DNA of 64,000 nucleotides from contig JAFUGK010000007.1 in the NCBI GenBank assembly GCA_017469445.1, positions 111,058-175,057 on the forward strand, written 5' to 3'. Of the stretch, positions 16,994 through 58,370 are shown one piece after another. The stretch's first letter is position 1, and the number at the start of each line of letters is the position of its first letter. The notes under the pieces are model-generated. The model did not search any database and had not been told where the DNA came from. It was given only the letters and a program-made list of their open reading frames with translations. A program made the translations under genes and the position numbers. Source of the DNA: Clostridia bacterium. Lineage in GTDB: Bacteria; Bacillota; Clostridia; TANB77; CAG-508.

Positions 16994-17196
16994 AATTGTG
17001 GGTTAACACAGAAATCCGCCCAATCTTAGCCGGTGTTGGATGTTTTCTTTCTCCAAGTATTCGAAAGAAAAATGCAACACCTACGTTGGGCTAATTTGGA
17101 GCAAAAAAACTGAATTTTTGAAATATGATAAATTATCTGTTGGAAAAGAATTGAGGTTATTTAAATTATTTTCTAACTTAGAAAGGAAAAAGAAAA

Positions 17197-19993: not shown

Positions 19994-20183
19994 ACAATAT
20001 ATCAACTATAAAATAATTTGCAAATTTTGTCGTTAAACTGCACTCGAAAATCCTGAGACATACCTATGTACGCCTCGGATTCTTCTCGCTTGTTTGCCTA
20101 GAAATTTACTAAATTCTTTTATAGTTTTGAATAACTAATAATTTTACTTGGAAATTAGGATTAAAAAGAGAGAGGATTTAAAA

Positions 20184-27353: not shown

Positions 27354-29417
27354 ATGAAATATTTAGATAAGGAATTATCTTTAAAAGACGCGCTAGAAAA
27401 AGAATGGTTAATTACAAATGGAATAGGTGGTTATGCATCTTCAACAGTAATTGGAGCAAATACAAGGAAATACCATGGATTACTTATTGCAGCATTAACA
27501 CCTCCAGCAAGAAGACATTTGATTCTTTCTAAATTAGATGAGAGCATAGAAATAAATGGTAAGAGCCATGTGTTATATACAAATATATGTAAAAACTATA
27601 TTTCAGAGGGCTTCAAGTTACAAAAAAACTTTGAAAAAGCATATATTCCAATATTTACATATGAAGTAAATGGAATAATAATTAAAAAAATTATTTGTAT
27701 GAAATATAGGGAAAATACAGTTTGCATTCTTTATAAAATTACAACAAAAGATGAAGATGCAAAATTAAATATCACACCTGTAATAAATTTTAGGGATTTT
27801 CATTGCATGAATACAGGTAAATATTATGATTTAAAACAAGAAGTAAAAGACCAAAAAGTGAAAATAATTGTTGATAATATGGGAATGAATCCAATTTATA
27901 TTTATGCATCAGAAGGAAATTATAATCAGCATTATAATGATACTTTTAATAATATGTATTATCTAGAAGAAGAGAAAAGAGGCTTTTTCCCTGAAGAAAA
28001 TCATGCAGTGCCTGGGACATTTACAGTGGAAATTCCAGCAAATGAAGAAAAGGAGATTTCTATAATATGCTCTTTAGAAAGTAATATCGAGGAAATAAAC
28101 ATAAAAGATGTAATAAATGAACAAATAAAAAGACTAGAAAACATGGTATATGAAAGTAATTTAGTATGGGAGAATAAAAAAGATACACAAGAACAAATAG
28201 AGGAAAAGAAATTTATTAAAGATTTAGTAATGAGTACAGATGATTTTATAGTATATAGGCCGACATTTGGATTACATACTGTTATTGCAGGCTATCATTG
28301 GTTCCTAGATTGGGGAAGAGATGCATTAATTGCATATGAAGGCTTACTTTTAAAAACTAGAAGATTTGAAATTGCAAAACAAGTATTATTAACTTTTACG
28401 CGAAATATAAAATTTGGTTTAGTACCAAATGGATATTCAGGATATGATAATAGACCATTATATAATAGTGTAGATAGTTCTTTATTATTATTTGAACAAA
28501 TAAAAAAATACCTTATCTATACAGGGGATTATGTCTTTGTAAAGAGGGAATTATATGAAATTTTAAAAAAGATAATAGAGTCATATAAGGTAGGAATAGA
28601 TCTAGATGATAATAATATTTACTTAGATGAAGATAATTTAATTGTAAGTGGAACAGACCATACTCAAAATACTTGGATGGATGCAAAATATGGCGATTTT
28701 GCAGTAACTCCAAGAAATGGAAAAGCAGTTGAAATAAATGCTCTTTGGTATAATGCATTAAATATAATGGCAGAATTATGTACAAAGTATGGAGAAAAGG
28801 CAGATGCAGAAATATATTTACAAATGGCAAGCAAAACTAAAAAATCTTTTGAAGAAAAATTTTATAACTCAAAAAGAAAATGTTTATATGATGTATTAGG
28901 AGATAGTAAAATAAGACCAAATCAATTATTTTCATTTTCATTAACATACCCAGTTATAGATCCAAATGGGGAAATAGCTCAAAATGTTTTAAAAGTTGTA
29001 GAATCAAAATTACTTAACAAATATGGATTAAAAACATTAGCAAAAGGTGAAAAAGGTTATGTAGATATATATGAAGGAAATGGATTTAAAAGAGATATGA
29101 GTTATCATCAAGGTATTACATGGCCTTGGCTTTTAGGATTATATAATAATTGTTTATTAAATCAATTAAAAGCGCAAAAGGATAAAAAGGAAAAATCAGA
29201 ATTAATAGAAAAATATTTAGAATTTGCAAATGAAACAGAAAAGACATTCAAAAAAGAATTTTACTATAATGGTGGAATATATAGTATTTCTGAAATATAC
29301 GATTCTAAAACGCCATTTCTTCCAAAGGGAACTATAGCACAAGCTTGGAGTGTAGCAGAAATATTAAGAATTATTCTAAATAAAAAGGAAGTAGAAAATG
29401 AGAATTTTAGGAATTGA
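27354..29417 (+). CDS. amylo-alpha-1,6-glucosidase / glycogen debranching enzyme (archaeal-type)
   Basis: N-terminal GDE_N-like ([24 protein letters not shown]) and C-terminal (alpha/alpha)6 barrel ([13 protein letters not shown]); 687 aa. Confidence 0.7.
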
Positions 29418-29884
29418 TCCAGGATTTGCAATAACAGGATATAGCATAGTAGATTACATAGGAAATAAATTCAAACTAATAACATCTGGAGCAGTAAAAA
29501 CCGAAGCACGGAGTTTCATTTCCTTTAAGATTAGAGAAAATATATAAAGATTTAGAAGAAATAATAAATGAGTATAAACCAGATGCAATGTCTGTTGAAG
29601 AGCTATTTTTTAATAATAATGCAAAAACAGCGATAAATGTTGCACAAGCAAGAGGGGTAGTTTTAGTAGTTGCAAGAATTCACGGGATACCAACATATGA
29701 ATATACTCCTTTGCAAGTAAAACAAGCAGTAGTAGGTTATGGTAGAGCAGATAAAATGCAAGTGCAAAGAATGGTAAAAATGATATTAAATGAAGAAAAA
29801 TTACCTAAATTGGATGATATAACTGATAGTATGGCAATTGCAATATGCCATGCACATTCTGCAAAATTTTCTCAAAAATTATAA
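29398..29884 (+). pseudogene. ruvC: Holliday junction resolvase RuvC, apparent frameshift in A5 run (29496-29500); possibly a sequencing artefact
   Basis: [18 protein letters not shown]...SGAVK in frame 1. It continues as ...[37 protein letters not shown]...QVKQAVVGYGRADKMQVQRMV... in frame 2 (listed ORF 29588-29884). The frame 1 stop is at 29545-29547. Confidence 0.75.
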
Positions 29885-29894
29885 GGAGTATTAA

Positions 29895-30869
29895 ATGGGT
29901 GGATTAGAGTTATTATATGGCGAAAATACATATTTAATAGAAAAAGAAATAAAGACTATTAAGAAAAAATTTGGCCAAATAGTTCAAGGAATAAACTATG
30001 TTGCAGTAGAACAAGAAAATTTAGAGAACATCATATCAGAACTCCAAACACCAGCATTTGGATATAGCCAAAAATTAATATTAGTAAAGAATTGTGATCT
30101 GTTAAAAAAAGAAACAAAAACTAAAAAAAATAAGAATAGTGAATTAATTTCAAAACTAGTAGATTATATTGAAGAAAATGCAAACCACATATTTGAAAAT
30201 GTAATATTATTAATTGTAGAAGAATCAGTAGATAAATCTAGTAGTTTATATAAAACAATAGAAAAACATGGGAAAATATTAGAATTAGCTGAGCTAAAAC
30301 CATTACAACTAATTACAAAGTTAAAACAGATATGCACAGCTTACAAAGTAGATATAGATGAAGATACACTAAAATATTTAATAGAAAAATGTGGAACATC
30401 ATTTCAAGAACTAATAAACGAAATACGAAAATTAATTGAGTATGCAGGAGAAGGCGGAAAGATTACTAAAAAAGAAGTGGATCTTTTGGCAATCCCCAAA
30501 ATAGAAGCTGTAATATTTGATTTGACAGATAGTTTAGGTGTGAAAAATATTAAGCAAGCAATGGAAGTATTAAATAATTTAATTTATAACAAAGAGCCTG
30601 TGCAAAAGATATTAATAACTTTATATAATCATTTTAAAAAATTATATCTTGTAAAGCTGGCCTTACGAGAAAATATAAGTTTAGAAGAAATATTAAATTT
30701 AAAGCCTAATCAAACTTTTCTAATAACAAAGTATAAAAGGCAAGCACAATATTTTGAAGAAGAAAAGTTAAGAAATATTTTAGAGGAATTGATTAATTTG
30801 GATTCTAATAGCAAGGTTGGATTGATTGATTTAAATATTGGACTAGAAGCAATACTTTGCAATGTGTAA
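29895..30869 (+). CDS. holA: DNA polymerase III subunit delta
   Basis: 324 aa, delta N-terminal/helical domain pattern (LLYGENTYLIEKEI...). Confidence 0.75.
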   Translation: MGGLELLYGENTYLIEKEIKTIKKKFGQIVQGINYVAVEQENLENIISELQTPAFGYSQKLILVKNCDLLKKETKTKKNKNSELISKLVDYIEENANHIFENVILLIVEESVDKSSSLYKTIEKHGKILELAELKPLQLITKLKQICTAYKVDIDEDTLKYLIEKCGTSFQELINEIRKLIEYAGEGGKITKKEVDLLAIPKIEAVIFDLTDSLGVKNIKQAMEVLNNLIYNKEPVQKILITLYNHFKKLYLVKLALRENISLEEILNLKPNQTFLITKYKRQAQYFEEEKLRNILEELINLDSNSKVGLIDLNIGLEAILCNV

Positions 30870-30873
30870 TAGC

Positions 30874-30905
30874 AAAAAACGAGTTCGTGATGAACTCGTT
30901 TTTTG
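30874..30905. terminator. bidirectional rho-independent terminator
   Basis: aaaaacgagttc-gtgat-gaactcgttttt, A-tract and T-tract on both sides. Confidence 0.65.
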
Positions 30906-30909
30906 TAGC

Positions 30910-31041
30910 TTATTGCCTTAACCATATGGCTAAAGCAATGAGGAGCATTGCTCCAACTACAGCAATAATGCCTTTCAGCCCGGCAAGAAGCATGCTTGGC
31001 ACATAGTGTTGTTTTCTTTCATTTTCAATGCTGTTTTTCAT
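30910..31041 (-). CDS. hypothetical small membrane protein (43 aa)
   Basis: MKNSIENERKQHYVPSMLLAGLKGIIAVVGAMLLIALAIWLRQ; RBS ggaggt 7 nt upstream; single TM; not in ORF track (<60 aa). Confidence 0.4.
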   Translation of the reverse strand: MKNSIENERKQHYVPSMLLAGLKGIIAVVGAMLLIALAIWLRQ

Positions 31042-31202
31042 TTCTTTTACCTCCTGCAGATATTTATATTGAATATATTAAATAAAAAACAAATGAAAAC
31101 AAAATTTAATAAATGTTTATACATATATATTATACCACAAATTTTGGAAAAAATGAATAAGATTATGCTAAATTAGGGAAAATAAAGATGATATTTATAA
31201 AA

Positions 31203-31374
31203 TATTCGCAATATATCTAATAATTTTTTCATTTAAAAGCACTCCATAGCAGGGCAATAGCTGACCAGACGGGGACCCTAGCGAGGAAGAAAGTTCAAAG
31301 TCTGGCAGAGCTTTGTGGGTCTTCGGGAACTGTCGGCTTTATAAATTAAAAAATTATTAGATATATTGCGAATA
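31203..31374. repeat. element bounded by a perfect 27-bp inverted repeat enclosing a 118-bp GC-enriched core (candidate structured RNA or MITE-like element)
   Basis: Left arm tattcgcaatatatctaataatttttt (31203-31229) is the exact reverse complement of the right arm (31348-31374). The core has nested/pseudoknot-like pairings (ccagac/gtctgg, ggaccc/gggtc). Confidence 0.5.
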
Positions 31375-31405
31375 GACGATAAAAATTGTGAAGGGACGTG
31401 TAATA

Positions 31406-32335
31406 ATGGATTTTAGAACTGATTTGGCCTTAGAGAGAAGAGATTTGTATAGAAAAGCAAATAATATGAAAGAGGAGATTCCTGGTATTGAAACTAATGA
31501 AGAAGAAAAGAATGGAACAAAAGTTACTAGAGTTAAAATAACTAATGAAGAGGGTGCAAGTGCAATTGGAAAGCCTATTGGAAATTATATTACTATAGAT
31601 ATTAAAAATGTAAAATTAGCTACTGAAGATGAAATACAAAATTCAGCAGAAATATTAGCAGAAGAATTAAGAAAATTATATGATATTCATTTAAATGGAA
31701 AAGAAGATATTTTAGTAGTTGGACTTGGAAATATGGGAGTAACACCAGATGCATTAGGACCTAGTGTAGTAAAGGATATAGATATAACAAGGCATTTATT
31801 AAAATATGCACCACAGTATTTAGAAGAAGGTGCAAGACCAGTTAGTGCATTAGCACCTGGAGTTCTTGGGACTACTGGAATAGAAACACAAGAAATTTTA
31901 AAAGGTATAGTAGATAATGTAAAACCAAAACTTTTAATTGTTATAGATAGTTTAGCATCAAAGAGTATAGAAAGAATTAGTTCGACAGTACAAATAGCAG
32001 ATACAGGAATAGTACCAGGAGCAGGAGTTGGAAATGCAAGAAAAGAGATATCTAAAGATACATTAGGAATACCAGTTATAGCATTAGGAATCCCAACAGT
32101 GGTAGAAGCAGCAACAATAGCAGCAGATTCAATAGAATTATTTATAGAAAAACTACAACAGGATGCAAAATCAAATGAGTATTTAAATGAACTACAAAAT
32201 GAAGATAAATATGAAATGATAAAAGAAGTATTAGTTCCAAATGACTTTAACTTTATAGTAACACCAAAAGAAATAGATGGCTTAATAGAAAATATGAGCT
32301 CCATAGTAGCAAGAGGAATAAATATAAGTTTGTAG
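31406..32335 (+). CDS. gpr: germination protease (GPR endopeptidase)
   Basis: MDFRTDLALE start, ...ILVVGLGN...GIET...VIDSLAS... GPR signature; start moved to ATG 31406. Confidence 0.85.
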   Translation: MDFRTDLALERRDLYRKANNMKEEIPGIETNEEEKNGTKVTRVKITNEEGASAIGKPIGNYITIDIKNVKLATEDEIQNSAEILAEELRKLYDIHLNGKEDILVVGLGNMGVTPDALGPSVVKDIDITRHLLKYAPQYLEEGARPVSALAPGVLGTTGIETQEILKGIVDNVKPKLLIVIDSLASKSIERISSTVQIADTGIVPGAGVGNARKEISKDTLGIPVIALGIPTVVEAATIAADSIELFIEKLQQDAKSNEYLNELQNEDKYEMIKEVLVPNDFNFIVTPKEIDGLIENMSSIVARGINISL

Positions 32336-32348
32336 TTGTGTAGTTGGG

Positions 32349-32425
32349 GACGTTTCCTTTTTGGGAATAGTTCCCAAAAAGGAAACGTCCCCAGTTGGGA
32401 ATTATTCCCAACTGGGGACACTGCT
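32349..32425. repeat. two overlapping perfect palindromes (22-bp and 15-bp stems) sharing a CCCC/GGGG clamp
   Basis: ggggacgtttcctttttgggaa-tag-ttcccaaaaaggaaacgtcccc, overlapping tccccagttgggaat-t-attcccaactgggga. They are mutually exclusive because both use the 'tcccc' segment. Confidence 0.5.
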
Positions 32426-38364: not shown

Positions 38365-39066
38365 ATGAATAAAGAATTAAGAGAAGAAATAAGAGAAGAA
38401 ATGAAGAAAGAAAACATAAAAAGAAAAAGATTGATTATATGTTTTCTAATACTTGTATTAATTACTATAATTGTAACAATAATAATTTCTAATAAAAATA
38501 CTGAAAATTATATATCAAAGGAAGAGTTTGAACAATATAAAAATGAATTACCTATAACTACAGATAATTGGAAAGATTATATTGAATTAGAATATGAAAA
38601 AAAAGAATATAAAGATACCTTTGGAGATGTAATAAAGAGTGAAAAAGTACCATGTTTAAAGTTTAAGAAGGATAATATAATTGGATATATGGTTTTGAAG
38701 TTTATAATAAATAAAGATGTGATAGATTCACGTTTTAGCAATGAAATTACGATTTCGGTTAATGGTAATAAACAAGAAATAAGTCCACAAATATTAGAAG
38801 GCAAAGAACTAACAATAAATGACATGGAATGCATTCAATTAAAAGGCAAATTATATGAAATCAACATTCCTGAAGATAAATGGGAAGAGTTTAAAACAAC
38901 TAGAATAACTAATAAATTTGTAGAAGGAGAAAATGTAACCATTGAAGAAAGAAAATATATTGATGTTGGCACAAAACAGGATTATTCTAGATATTGGGAA
39001 TATACATATCTTGATGAATTACGCATTAAAGAAACTGATAAATACTTAAAAGGAAACAATAATTAA
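38365..39066 (+). CDS. hypothetical membrane-anchored protein
   Basis: 233 aa, charged N-terminus then TM (LIICFLILVLITIIVTIII); start 2 nt after the giant gene, probably co-transcribed. Confidence 0.5.
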   Translation: MNKELREEIREEMKKENIKRKRLIICFLILVLITIIVTIIISNKNTENYISKEEFEQYKNELPITTDNWKDYIELEYEKKEYKDTFGDVIKSEKVPCLKFKKDNIIGYMVLKFIINKDVIDSRFSNEITISVNGNKQEISPQILEGKELTINDMECIQLKGKLYEINIPEDKWEEFKTTRITNKFVEGENVTIEERKYIDVGTKQDYSRYWEYTYLDELRIKETDKYLKGNNN

Positions 39067-39070
39067 GACA

Positions 39071-39117
39071 AAAATACTTCTTTATGAAAAAGCATAAAGA
39101 AGTATTTTTGTGTTTTT
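39071..39117 (+). terminator. rho-independent terminator
   Basis: aatacttctttatg-aaaaag-cataaagaagtatt perfect 14-bp stem + T-tract. Confidence 0.65.
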
Positions 39118-39149
39118 ACAAATTTATTTCACTTTTTTATCAAAAACAG

Positions 39150-39179
39150 TTGACTTTACCAACCAATCCGTAGTATAAT
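39150..39179 (+). promoter_or_regulatory. S10 operon promoter (TTGACT-N18-TATAAT) followed by ~215-nt leader
   Basis: consensus hexamers; long structured leader before rpsJ RBS. Confidence 0.55.
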
Positions 39180-39397
39180 ATTCAAGCGTATGGATTTGCG
39201 GTGAAGCAGAATGTGGCTACACTATTTATAGTGGAGGGAACTTCTGTGGAGTATGTCTTGGCTTAGACCGGGCGAAAGTTTGATAAAAGCACTTTTACCT
39301 AAGTTCATTATGCCTTAGGTTTTAAAAATGGTATAAAAAGAAACACCAGGGTGCGTTGATAACTTGCCGGAAACATTTTTAAATAAGGAGGGAAATT

Positions 39398-39727
39398 ATG
39401 GCAACATCAAACAAAGTAGTAGGAAGTGACAAAATAAGAATAAGATTAAAAGCTTATGACTATGTAGTTTTAGATCAGTCTGCTGAAAAAATAGTAGATA
39501 CTGCTAAAAGAACAGGAGCACAAGTTTCAGGTCCAATTCCACTTCCAACAAAAAAGGAAGTTATAACAATTTTACGTTCTCCACACAAACATAAAGATGC
39601 TAGAGAGCAATTTGAAATGAGAACACATAAAAGAGTTATAGATATTCTATATCCAACACAAAAAACTGTTGATAGTTTAATGAAATTAGACTTACCAGCA
39701 GGTGTAGACATTGAAATTAAATTGTAA
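39398..39727 (+). CDS. rpsJ: 30S ribosomal protein S10
   Basis: [39 protein letters not shown]. Confidence 0.95.
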
Positions 39728-50261: not shown

Positions 50262-50357
50262 ATCATAGGGCAAATATTAAAATATGTTTGCCCTGTATGA
50301 TTTTTTCAAAACATATTTTTTCAATGTGCTTTGAAAAAATATGTTTTGAAAAAATCA
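50262..50357. promoter_or_regulatory. secY-adk spacer: short hairpin followed by a perfect 24-bp inverted repeat
   Basis: Hairpin agggcaaa...tttgccct (50262-50296). Then tgattttttcaaaacatatttttt (50298-50321) and its exact reverse complement (50334-50357), separated by a 12-nt loop. Confidence 0.5.
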
Positions 50358-50377
50358 TACAGGTAGGAGGAAGAATT

Positions 50378-58258: not shown

Positions 58259-58302
58259 ATAGAGAATGAAGATTCCAAATAAATATATTAGAATTTGTAT
58301 AT

Positions 58303-58340
58303 AAAAAACAATGTAAATAATTTAATTTACATTGTTTTTT
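58303..58340 (+). terminator. rho-independent terminator
   Basis: aaaaaacaatgtaaat-aattt-aatttacattgtttttt. Confidence 0.65.
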
Positions 58341-58341
58341 A

Positions 58342-58370
58342 TTGCAAATATTGTTATGTTATGATATAAA
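58342..58370 (+). promoter_or_regulatory. repeat-family promoter copy 2
   Basis: ttgcaa 58342-58347; tataaa 58365-58370; same gttatgatataaat block. Confidence 0.55.

Follow-up and report, generated by a model that had tools for sequence, protein, structure and literature searches.

In this work we describe an inverted-repeat element that occupies the leader of gpr, the germination protease gene, within a 64,000-nt stretch (hereafter the window) of contig JAFUGK010000007.1 from an uncultured low-GC gut Clostridium, for which the best Gpr among the GTDB species representatives is 88% identical. We read the element as a young, non-coding palindromic DNA insert that has replaced a short ancestral gpr leader in one lineage and is tolerated there, an interpretation to which we give an about even chance of being right. 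In our ranking it stands ahead of, in descending order, a phase switch of gpr, an RNA stabiliser or RNase III cassette, a classical miniature inverted-repeat transposable element (MITE) and a riboswitch.

The element consists of two 27-nt arms, complementary at 27 of 27 positions, around a 118-bp core of 48% GC (G33 C24 A34 T27), and it lies between a small minus-strand gene and gpr, just as the preliminary description of this DNA had placed it (Table 1). GC content reaches 56% in the central 98 nt of the core, against 17-30% in 100-nt windows around the element (neighbourhood roughly 25%), and the core strand in the gpr sense is G-rich, with a modest G/C skew (G33/C24). Imperfect complementarity extends inward and outward of the arms, such that 31191-31238 pairs with 31339-31386 (48 nt, 85%). 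With up to three mismatches allowed, the 27-mer matches the window twice, at the two arms themselves, against 0.00 matches expected from 100 shuffles, and the 64 kb hold no other long inverted repeat with perfect arms and a spacer of more than 100 nt. The arms pair by Watson-Crick rules on both strands, with no G-U pair, a perfection best explained by homogenisation at the DNA level rather than by selection on an RNA stem.

The preliminary description had proposed a comparison among strains as a check, and this comparison bore out the variability of the element, which is present in one set of contigs (type A), replaced in a ~99.9% identical strain and absent from the closest sister lineage. 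Seven public contigs encode a Gpr identical to that of the window. Type A is carried by L085, identical to the window over 20.9 kb, and by L101, a contig of a second sample with 3.4 kb of full identity, in which the element has the same orientation; two Logan contigs (L099 and L003, from three samples) hold the two halves of type A, again in that orientation. Contigs L001 and L086 encode an identical Gpr and match the window with 99.96% identity upstream and 99.89% downstream, over 16 kb, with no mismatch in the 317 bp of the left flank and one in the 3930 bp of the right; from 31185 to the ATG, however, an unrelated 150-bp stretch replaces type A, and nothing can be aligned between the two. 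In the sister lineage (L087, Gpr 91% identical), TGAATA..GGGAAAATA is followed by a 21-nt leader and the ATG, and the leaders of most of 80 species-level relatives are likewise short and AT-rich (roughly 20-40 nt). BLAST of the element against ~97 related loci gave no match, and it is absent at 80 GTDB-representative and 11 closer gpr loci as well as in the co-specific strain. The short leader of the sister lineage indicates that type A is a gain, and since its Shine-Dalgarno (SD) region (GAAGGGACG) is also foreign, the whole leader has been replaced, not interrupted. A derivation of the arms from the ancestral leader was considered and rejected, the best local score being 18 against a null of 16.9 +/- 2.7.

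The stretch that takes the place of type A in L001 contains a different element, type B, an 88-nt GC-rich repeat that forms a long hairpin (z about -5) and has no Rfam match. It occurs in L001 both after the holA stop codon and in the gpr leader (2421-2515, 2881-2968), and in the window at 17012-17098, between priA and def. Two compensatory pair changes (GGCATTG/CAATGCC versus GGTGTTG/CAACACC) set the window copy apart from those in L001. In the gpr leader, a 22-bp quasi-palindrome, AATAATACTATATAGAATAATT, has type B at its centre, with a TACTATA direct repeat flanking the copy; without type B, what remains is a 34-nt leader with an SD region like that of the relatives.

The last sequence common to type A, the other allele and the sister lineage is a promoter-like block directly upstream of the variable segment. 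The block is identical in L001 and L086 and conserved in L087, L088, L093 and L006, at 45-55 nt from their ATG, and in the relatives it precedes gpr in the form TGAATA, 17 nt, nnAAAATAn. The consensus of sigmaF and sigmaG promoters and the forespore promoter of Bacillus subtilis gpr are established knowledge, and by its position and its resemblance to that consensus we take the block to be the forespore promoter of gpr. Judged from the promoter position, transcription would start at ~31190-31192, at the base of the extended helix, so that the element would form essentially the whole 5' untranslated region (UTR) of gpr. The preliminary description had allowed for a gpr promoter elsewhere and no transcript across the element; instead, a conserved promoter lies just upstream, and the element is most likely transcribed as a leader.

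In the mechanism that we propose, the conserved forespore promoter would transcribe the element as the first ~200 nt of the gpr mRNA, where the arms would close a 27-bp helix, extended to ~40 bp, that begins a few nucleotides from the 5' end and leaves 4-5 nt to the ribosome-binding site. Such a helix would insulate the core and leave the start region unchanged. Since the arms insulate the core, turning it round does not alter the predicted accessibility of the SD and the AUG; masking of the SD in one orientation, considered as a candidate, was not seen in this prediction. The SD of type A differs both from GAGAGGAGAG of the other allele and from the sister lineage. We consider it most likely that the insert is tolerated and is no dedicated regulator. 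A probable side effect is that it shields the 5' end from exonucleases; alternatively, RNase III may cleave the perfect 27-bp duplex, as it does for Correia elements (PMC2649163). We infer the transcription of the element and all of these consequences at the RNA level.

The same geometry is open to another interpretation, in which the element is a selected RNA device that tunes forespore synthesis of Gpr, either as a 5' stabiliser hairpin or as an RNase III cassette from which processing frees the core as a small RNA and shortens the leader. Stabiliser stem-loops at the 5' terminus are known from the Firmicute ermC and aprE leaders, of which they are short, conserved parts. The predicted type A helix resembles them in starting a few nucleotides from the 5' end, upstream of an accessible SD, but type A is a 196-bp foreign palindrome found in some strains only. 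The helix would begin at the predicted 5' end and end just before the SD, and a mismatch-free duplex of at least 22 bp is a substrate of the RNase III type, with a precedent in the Correia repeat enclosed elements (CREE) of Neisseria (PMC2649163). Moreover, three unrelated hairpin-forming inserts occur in gpr leaders (type A, type B in L001 and L002, and a GGGGAC hairpin in L060), which could reflect selection. On the other side, the element is not conserved and is absent from the sister lineage and most relatives, the Watson-Crick pairing of the arms on both strands without G-U suggests a constraint on DNA, and the core lacks a structure signal. We therefore consider such a device unlikely and place it behind a phase switch.

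Two further observations concern the start region of gpr. In many relatives (among them L034, L061, L062, L070, L071, L077 and L078), 20-60 nt ahead of gpr, the sequence that separates -35 from -10 in the gpr promoter can pair with the SD region of the gene, as in AAAACCTCCTTTT ... AAAAGGAGGTTTTTT; this hairpin and the T-run resemble a terminator of the upstream gene with the gpr promoter in its loop, and would mask the SD only in read-through transcripts. In a same-species metagenome-assembled genome (MAG) from NCBI with identical HolA and TlpA, Gpr begins with MMDFRT (P0121, NCBI MBQ9297886.1), and one A-to-G change at window position 31405 in the type A leader would create the extra ATG of that protein.

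The preliminary description had also noted nested, pseudoknot-like pairings in the core and counted a structured non-coding RNA or regulatory switch among its options. The quoted strings do exist (CCAGAC at 31265-31270 with GTCTGG at 31300-31305, and GGACCC with GGGTCT), but the core contains one perfect 6-bp complementary pair against 1.46 expected from dinucleotide shuffles, 68% of which have at least as many, so the supposed pseudoknot does not rise above chance. As RNA, the whole element folds at -66 kcal/mol on the plus strand, with a z score against shuffles of -7.1, and with z -6.7 on the minus strand; as DNA it folds with z -6.5. For the core by itself, z is close to zero (-0.35 on the plus strand, +0.37 on the minus strand), so that it has no advantage over its shuffles. 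The folding signal of the element thus comes from its arms, not from its core. A cmscan search against Rfam 15 (30800-31800, both strands, E<=10) gave no match overlapping 31186-31405, and the entire window has no Rfam match at gathering score. The element contains no tRNA or transfer-messenger RNA (tmRNA) and no ORF (open reading frame) longer than 20 codons, and phage and plasmid collections and E. coli genomes gave chance AT-rich matches only. A GC-rich island in a 5' UTR with interleaved complementary hexamers might suggest a riboswitch, that is, a ligand- or protein-sensing cis-regulatory RNA with a pseudoknotted core. We consider this very improbable, and rejected it as a candidate together with any known RNA, given the missing Rfam match, a core whose minimum free energy equals that of shuffles, pairings at chance level and the absence of the element upstream of gpr in ~90 related loci and in the co-specific strain.

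Elements of similar build occur in related gut Clostridia, in a class that we define by perfect AT-rich arms, each 15 nt or longer, that enclose a GC-richer core of 60-130 nt in intergenic DNA, a definition that type A fits. A scan of the ~97 related loci for perfect inverted repeats found at least 12 such elements, with AT-rich arms of 15-29 nt and cores of 64-125 nt and 32-44% GC (most 40-44%), none of which reaches the Rfam gathering score. At least two core families, C1 and C2, recur among them. The C1 cores share an invariant CCCAAC...GTYGGTCCCCAC, a central hairpin with compensatory changes and a twofold C excess on one strand, and the family is not in Rfam; its arms are long, AT-rich and different from copy to copy. 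The C2 copies have only the inner 10 nt of their arms (CTTATATTTT) in common. Arms differ even among copies of one core in the same locus, as between the two C2 copies of L079 and between the two C1 copies of L035. Several of the related cores are twofold C-rich on one strand, and those of C1, C3 and B form strong hairpins (z -3 to -8), unlike those of type A and C2. The window itself holds an element of the same build at 20004-20126, whose arms are imperfect (35 nt, 74% complementary) and enclose 53 nt of roughly 50% GC; it directly follows a GGGACGG...CGTCCC hairpin.

The behaviour of the arms in this class is most apparent in two closely related genomes, L078 and L079, whose flanks are collinear with 93-98% identity. 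Their post-gpr C2 elements are identical at 112 of 112 positions only as reverse complements, and the second C2 element, 1.4 kb away, is also inverted between the two loci (86% on the minus strand). At this second site the arms of L078 are imperfect, and those of L079 are perfect and look like a mosaic of both L078 arms. In addition, a 1-nt indel between L035 and L031 is matched in the opposite arm. The inversions, the mosaic and the matching arm changes together indicate that the arms recombine with or convert each other and that the enclosed segment flips. If type A belongs to this class, as its build suggests, its core would be a dispersed repeat and its arms specific to the copy, kept identical to each other by mutual recombination or gene conversion, with the segment between them able to invert. 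The two C2 elements bracket a segment that contains smpB; next to smpB (L079 4369-4827, minus strand), the 6-kb locus contains no adjacent tmRNA gene by ARAGORN or at Rfam gathering score.

Many elements of the class lie 55-100 nt past the gpr stop codon. At the same post-gpr site, L031 (3426-3744) and L035 (3497-3649) carry different nested palindromic elements, a four-level hairpin of roughly 320 nt in the former and a C1 element in the latter, with only the outermost CTAGG...CCTAG in common. This site is a second case of cassette-like replacement and mirrors that of type A and type B in the leader. A broader and more tentative proposal, which we regard as doubtful at present, is that these elements represent an undescribed kind of non-coding element in uncultured low-GC gut Clostridia, with a repeated core and copy-specific, homogenised arms, flipping and cassette-swapped at fixed intergenic sites, for instance in mRNA leaders and at the ends of genes; the gpr leader would be one of its hot spots (A, B) and possibly a switch.

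Long perfect palindromes without a core also occur in the window, at 32345-32393, 32390-32418, 50292-50363, 58301-58342 and 39065-39114, with 18-33 nt in each arm and 3-6 nt in the loop. The first two, just after the gpr stop codon, have a common GGGGAC...GTCCCC base, which recurs in hairpins of the relatives (L056, L060, L050 and the outer arms of L035/L031). Such palindromes may be terminators, or 'empty' versions or targets of the elements flanked by inverted repeats.

Short-read assemblies offer a further view of the core. In the Logan assemblies (k=31) of three samples, the holA-side contig L099 ends at 31261 and the gpr-side contig L003 starts at 31317, that is, symmetrically 32 nt and 31 nt inside the core. 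A de Bruijn simulation reproduced these ends exactly if 31232-31346, the core without its arms, is also present in another context. Because the overhangs equal k, the break favours a core that is repeated elsewhere, and we infer on this basis that the core is multi-copy. A mixture of orientations was rejected as the cause, since the simulation then places the ends at 31229 and 31348, and a mixture of type A and type B would be expected to break contigs at 31185 and 31406, unlike the ends in Logan.

These results bear on the possibility that the element is a phase-variable inverton in the 5' UTR of gpr, in which a site-specific recombinase flips the 118-bp core; gpr mRNA would pass in one orientation, and the other, with a C-rich transcript, would lead to Rho-dependent termination or decay. 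The closest counterpart is the flgB (Cdi4) switch of Clostridioides difficile, in which 154 bp between AT-rich inverted repeats of 21 bp lie in the 5' UTR, downstream of the promoter, and act after transcription initiation (PMC5386303), in a Rho-dependent manner (PMC7446863). That switch was found in silico by the identity restored on reverse-complementing the segment (PMC5386303), the same sign as that of the C2 inversion between L078 and L079. Like the RecV-dependent flgB and cwpV switches, type A is a segment flanked by inverted repeats in a 5' UTR downstream of a promoter; at both of their two sites, L078 and L079 carry elements of this build in opposite orientations, the type A arms remain perfect, and the G/C asymmetry of the core (G33/C24) and the twofold C-richness of several related cores also fit. 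The flgB repeats, however, are imperfect, the inner A/T runs have opposite polarity (A6|core|T6 in flgB, T6|core|A6 in type A), and cores in the related Clostridia are dispersed repeats, which the C. difficile switches are not. Further points against an inverton are the single orientation shared by the window and all type A contigs, the position of the Logan break, the lack of a recombinase among the called genes within +/-10 kb, the lack of promoters or terminators in the core beyond chance, and an SD accessibility that is predicted to be independent of orientation. An inverton would also leave unexplained the different element in a 99.9% identical strain. Such a switch is in our view unlikely, although it ranks first among the rivals.

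Several results weigh against our preferred reading of type A as a tolerated insert of this class. Its membership rests on architecture only: pairwise local alignment of type A with all other cores scored at null level, and a covariance model of C1 (R1) found all six known C1 copies and nothing in the window. Further copies were equally elusive. The core hairpin pattern CCAGACGGGGACCC..GTCTGGCAG had no match in 185,579 GTDB representatives or in the JGI metagenomes, the 3' core 21-mer none in IMG/VR, and the arm 21-mer none in the JGI metagenomes and one chance match within a coding region in IMG/VR; the species is absent from the GTDB representatives and from JGI, so that these negatives mean rarity across taxa and not a single copy in its own genome. 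Neither a second type A core nor a second 27-mer was found in the window or in the phage and plasmid collections, and the 10 kb upstream of the window hold no further A, B or D elements; additional copies of the 27-mer, a check raised in the preliminary description, thus did not materialise. There is no transposase or recombinase among the called genes within 10 kb on either side and no direct target-site duplication at the perfect or extended boundaries (flanks ...ATAAAA|arm...arm|GACGAT...). In the simulation, a co-occurring variant with a different central 55 nt also yielded the Logan ends that a repeated core yields, and type A has been seen in one orientation only. Finally, the replaced stretch runs past the arms to the ATG and has a different SD, so simple insertion into the ancestral leader is insufficient; either homologous recombination must have brought in the whole leader from an unsampled donor, or a deletion must have accompanied the insertion.

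Among the options of the preliminary description, a mobile miniature element comes closest. Presence and absence among near-identical strains, absence from the sister lineage and the build of a dispersed, inverting class sustain that option; the missing target duplication, the missing 27-mer elsewhere and, in the related elements, the lack of shared arms speak against its classical form. In that form, the element would be a MITE that arose from an insertion sequence by deletion and is moved in trans by a transposase with the 27-bp terminal repeats as its recognition sites. This would account for a 172-bp intergenic unit with perfect terminal inverted repeats, for its presence or absence between strains and for an outward-facing -10-like TATATT in each arm, as in Correia elements (PMC2649163). 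However, the arms lack flanking direct repeats (AAAA|...|GACG), their sequence is unique in the collections searched, and no ORF flanked by inverted repeats with similar ends occurs in the window or in ~0.5 Mb of related loci. Promoter-like matches within the element number 4 against 3.3 expected, and internal promoter and terminator matches are likewise at chance level. Moreover, arms in the related class are not conserved among copies of one core, the opposite of what recognition of the ends by a transposase predicts. A classical MITE is quite improbable on these grounds. We found nothing specific in the literature on MITEs or invertons of this kind in Clostridia.

In its likely mode of action, type A nonetheless appears most like a Correia-type element, with an inverted-repeat hairpin co-transcribed in a leader. 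CREE, or nemis, of Neisseria are ~105-155 bp long, with 26-bp inverted repeats around a characteristic core. They are intergenic and often lie 5' of genes whose transcripts they share and in which RNase III binds or cuts the hairpin; positions vary between strains (PMC2649163). Hundreds of CREE copies, however, have conserved ends in common, and the TA (or CA) target is duplicated, whereas the type A arms are unique in searches and no duplication is present; arms of the relatives' elements differ among copies of one core, and in type A the ancestral leader is replaced and not merely interrupted. The host belongs to a different phylum and the arms are unrelated, so the resemblance is functional only (PMC2649163). 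A second group for comparison comprises the REP/BIME, ERIC and pneumococcal BOX, RUP and SPRITE repeats, short non-coding GC-richer hairpin repeats that are intergenic, strain-variable and co-transcribed (PMC3049150, PMC2229807). Type B fits this kind well; type A differs in a core that forms no hairpin (z ~0) and in long perfect arms that lie outside the inferred repeat unit. Type A is therefore a small non-coding insertion flanked by inverted repeats that lacks what defines a MITE (target duplication, shared ends), whose own inversion is not demonstrated and which lies outside the curated RNA families.

Table 1. Coordinates of the element, the gpr locus and the recurring elements of related loci (the latter in positions of the locus named).
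Feature	Position	Strand	Remarks
Forespore-type promoter-like block of gpr	31154-31185	+	TGAATA at 31154-31159, 16-17 nt, GGGAAAATAA at 31176-31185
Variable segment ('type A allele')	31186-31405	+	Everything from the promoter -10 to the gpr ATG
Outer imperfect extension of left arm	31191-31198		ATATTTAT; pairs with 31379-31386 across a 4-nt mismatch
Left arm	31203-31229	+	TATTCGCAATATATCTAATAATTTTTT; perfect inverted repeat, 27 nt
GC-rich core	31230-31347		118 bp; no ORF >20 codons, tRNA, Rfam match or folding signal of its own
Right arm	31348-31374		27 nt; exact reverse complement of the left arm
Outer imperfect extension of right arm	31379-31386		ATAAAAAT
Weak SD-like AAGGGA	31391-31396	+	10 nt before the ATG, inside the variable segment
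gpr	31406-32335	+	Germination protease, Peptidase_A25, 309 aa; ATG at 31406
Divergent 43-codon membrane-like ORF	30910-31041	-	Strong SD; outside the element; position conserved in relatives; no Pfam match
C1 elements	L035:492-638, L031:603-750, L035:3504-3642, L020:3488-3631		
C1 elements	L040:3523-3643, L053:2198-2410	reverse	
C2 elements, post-gpr	L078:3530-3641, L079:3539-3650		Recurring 64-nt core
C2 elements, second site	L078:4973-5083, L079:4982-5095		Recurring 64-nt core
Singletons			Several others, without a recurring core

Elsewhere in the window, ruvC is split by a frameshift near 29510-29540 into reading frames of 49 codons (29398-29547) and 98 codons (29588-29884), and the same split is present in the independent assemblies L001, L085 and L099; a glf homologue is likewise split (1592-2161 and 2158-2670). 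Before the S10 ribosomal protein operon (39137-39400), a near-consensus sigmaA promoter (TTGACT-17-TATAAT, ~39150-39178) precedes ~200 nt of GC-rich leader. This leader has no Rfam match and may be an undescribed ribosomal protein leader.

Taken alone, type A is a single orphan palindromic insert, and its practical lesson is a negative one, namely that a riboswitch should not be inferred from a GC-rich island that a perfect stem closes ahead of a gene. Elements of this kind also break short-k assemblies at predictable places, which matters for the quality of MAGs and for inverton surveys. In the relatives, the copy-specific and yet perfect arms, their concerted changes and the exact inversions are unlike what is known of transposase-driven MITEs, and hint at a recombination or template-switch mechanism undescribed for these organisms. 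In strains that are 99.9% identical, the whole 5' UTR of a conserved sporulation gene has been swapped for unrelated structured elements, an under-appreciated route to regulatory divergence in gut bacteria. If the cassette-element proposal is true, near-identical strains would acquire different 5' UTRs for a gene of sporulation and germination, possibly as a switch.

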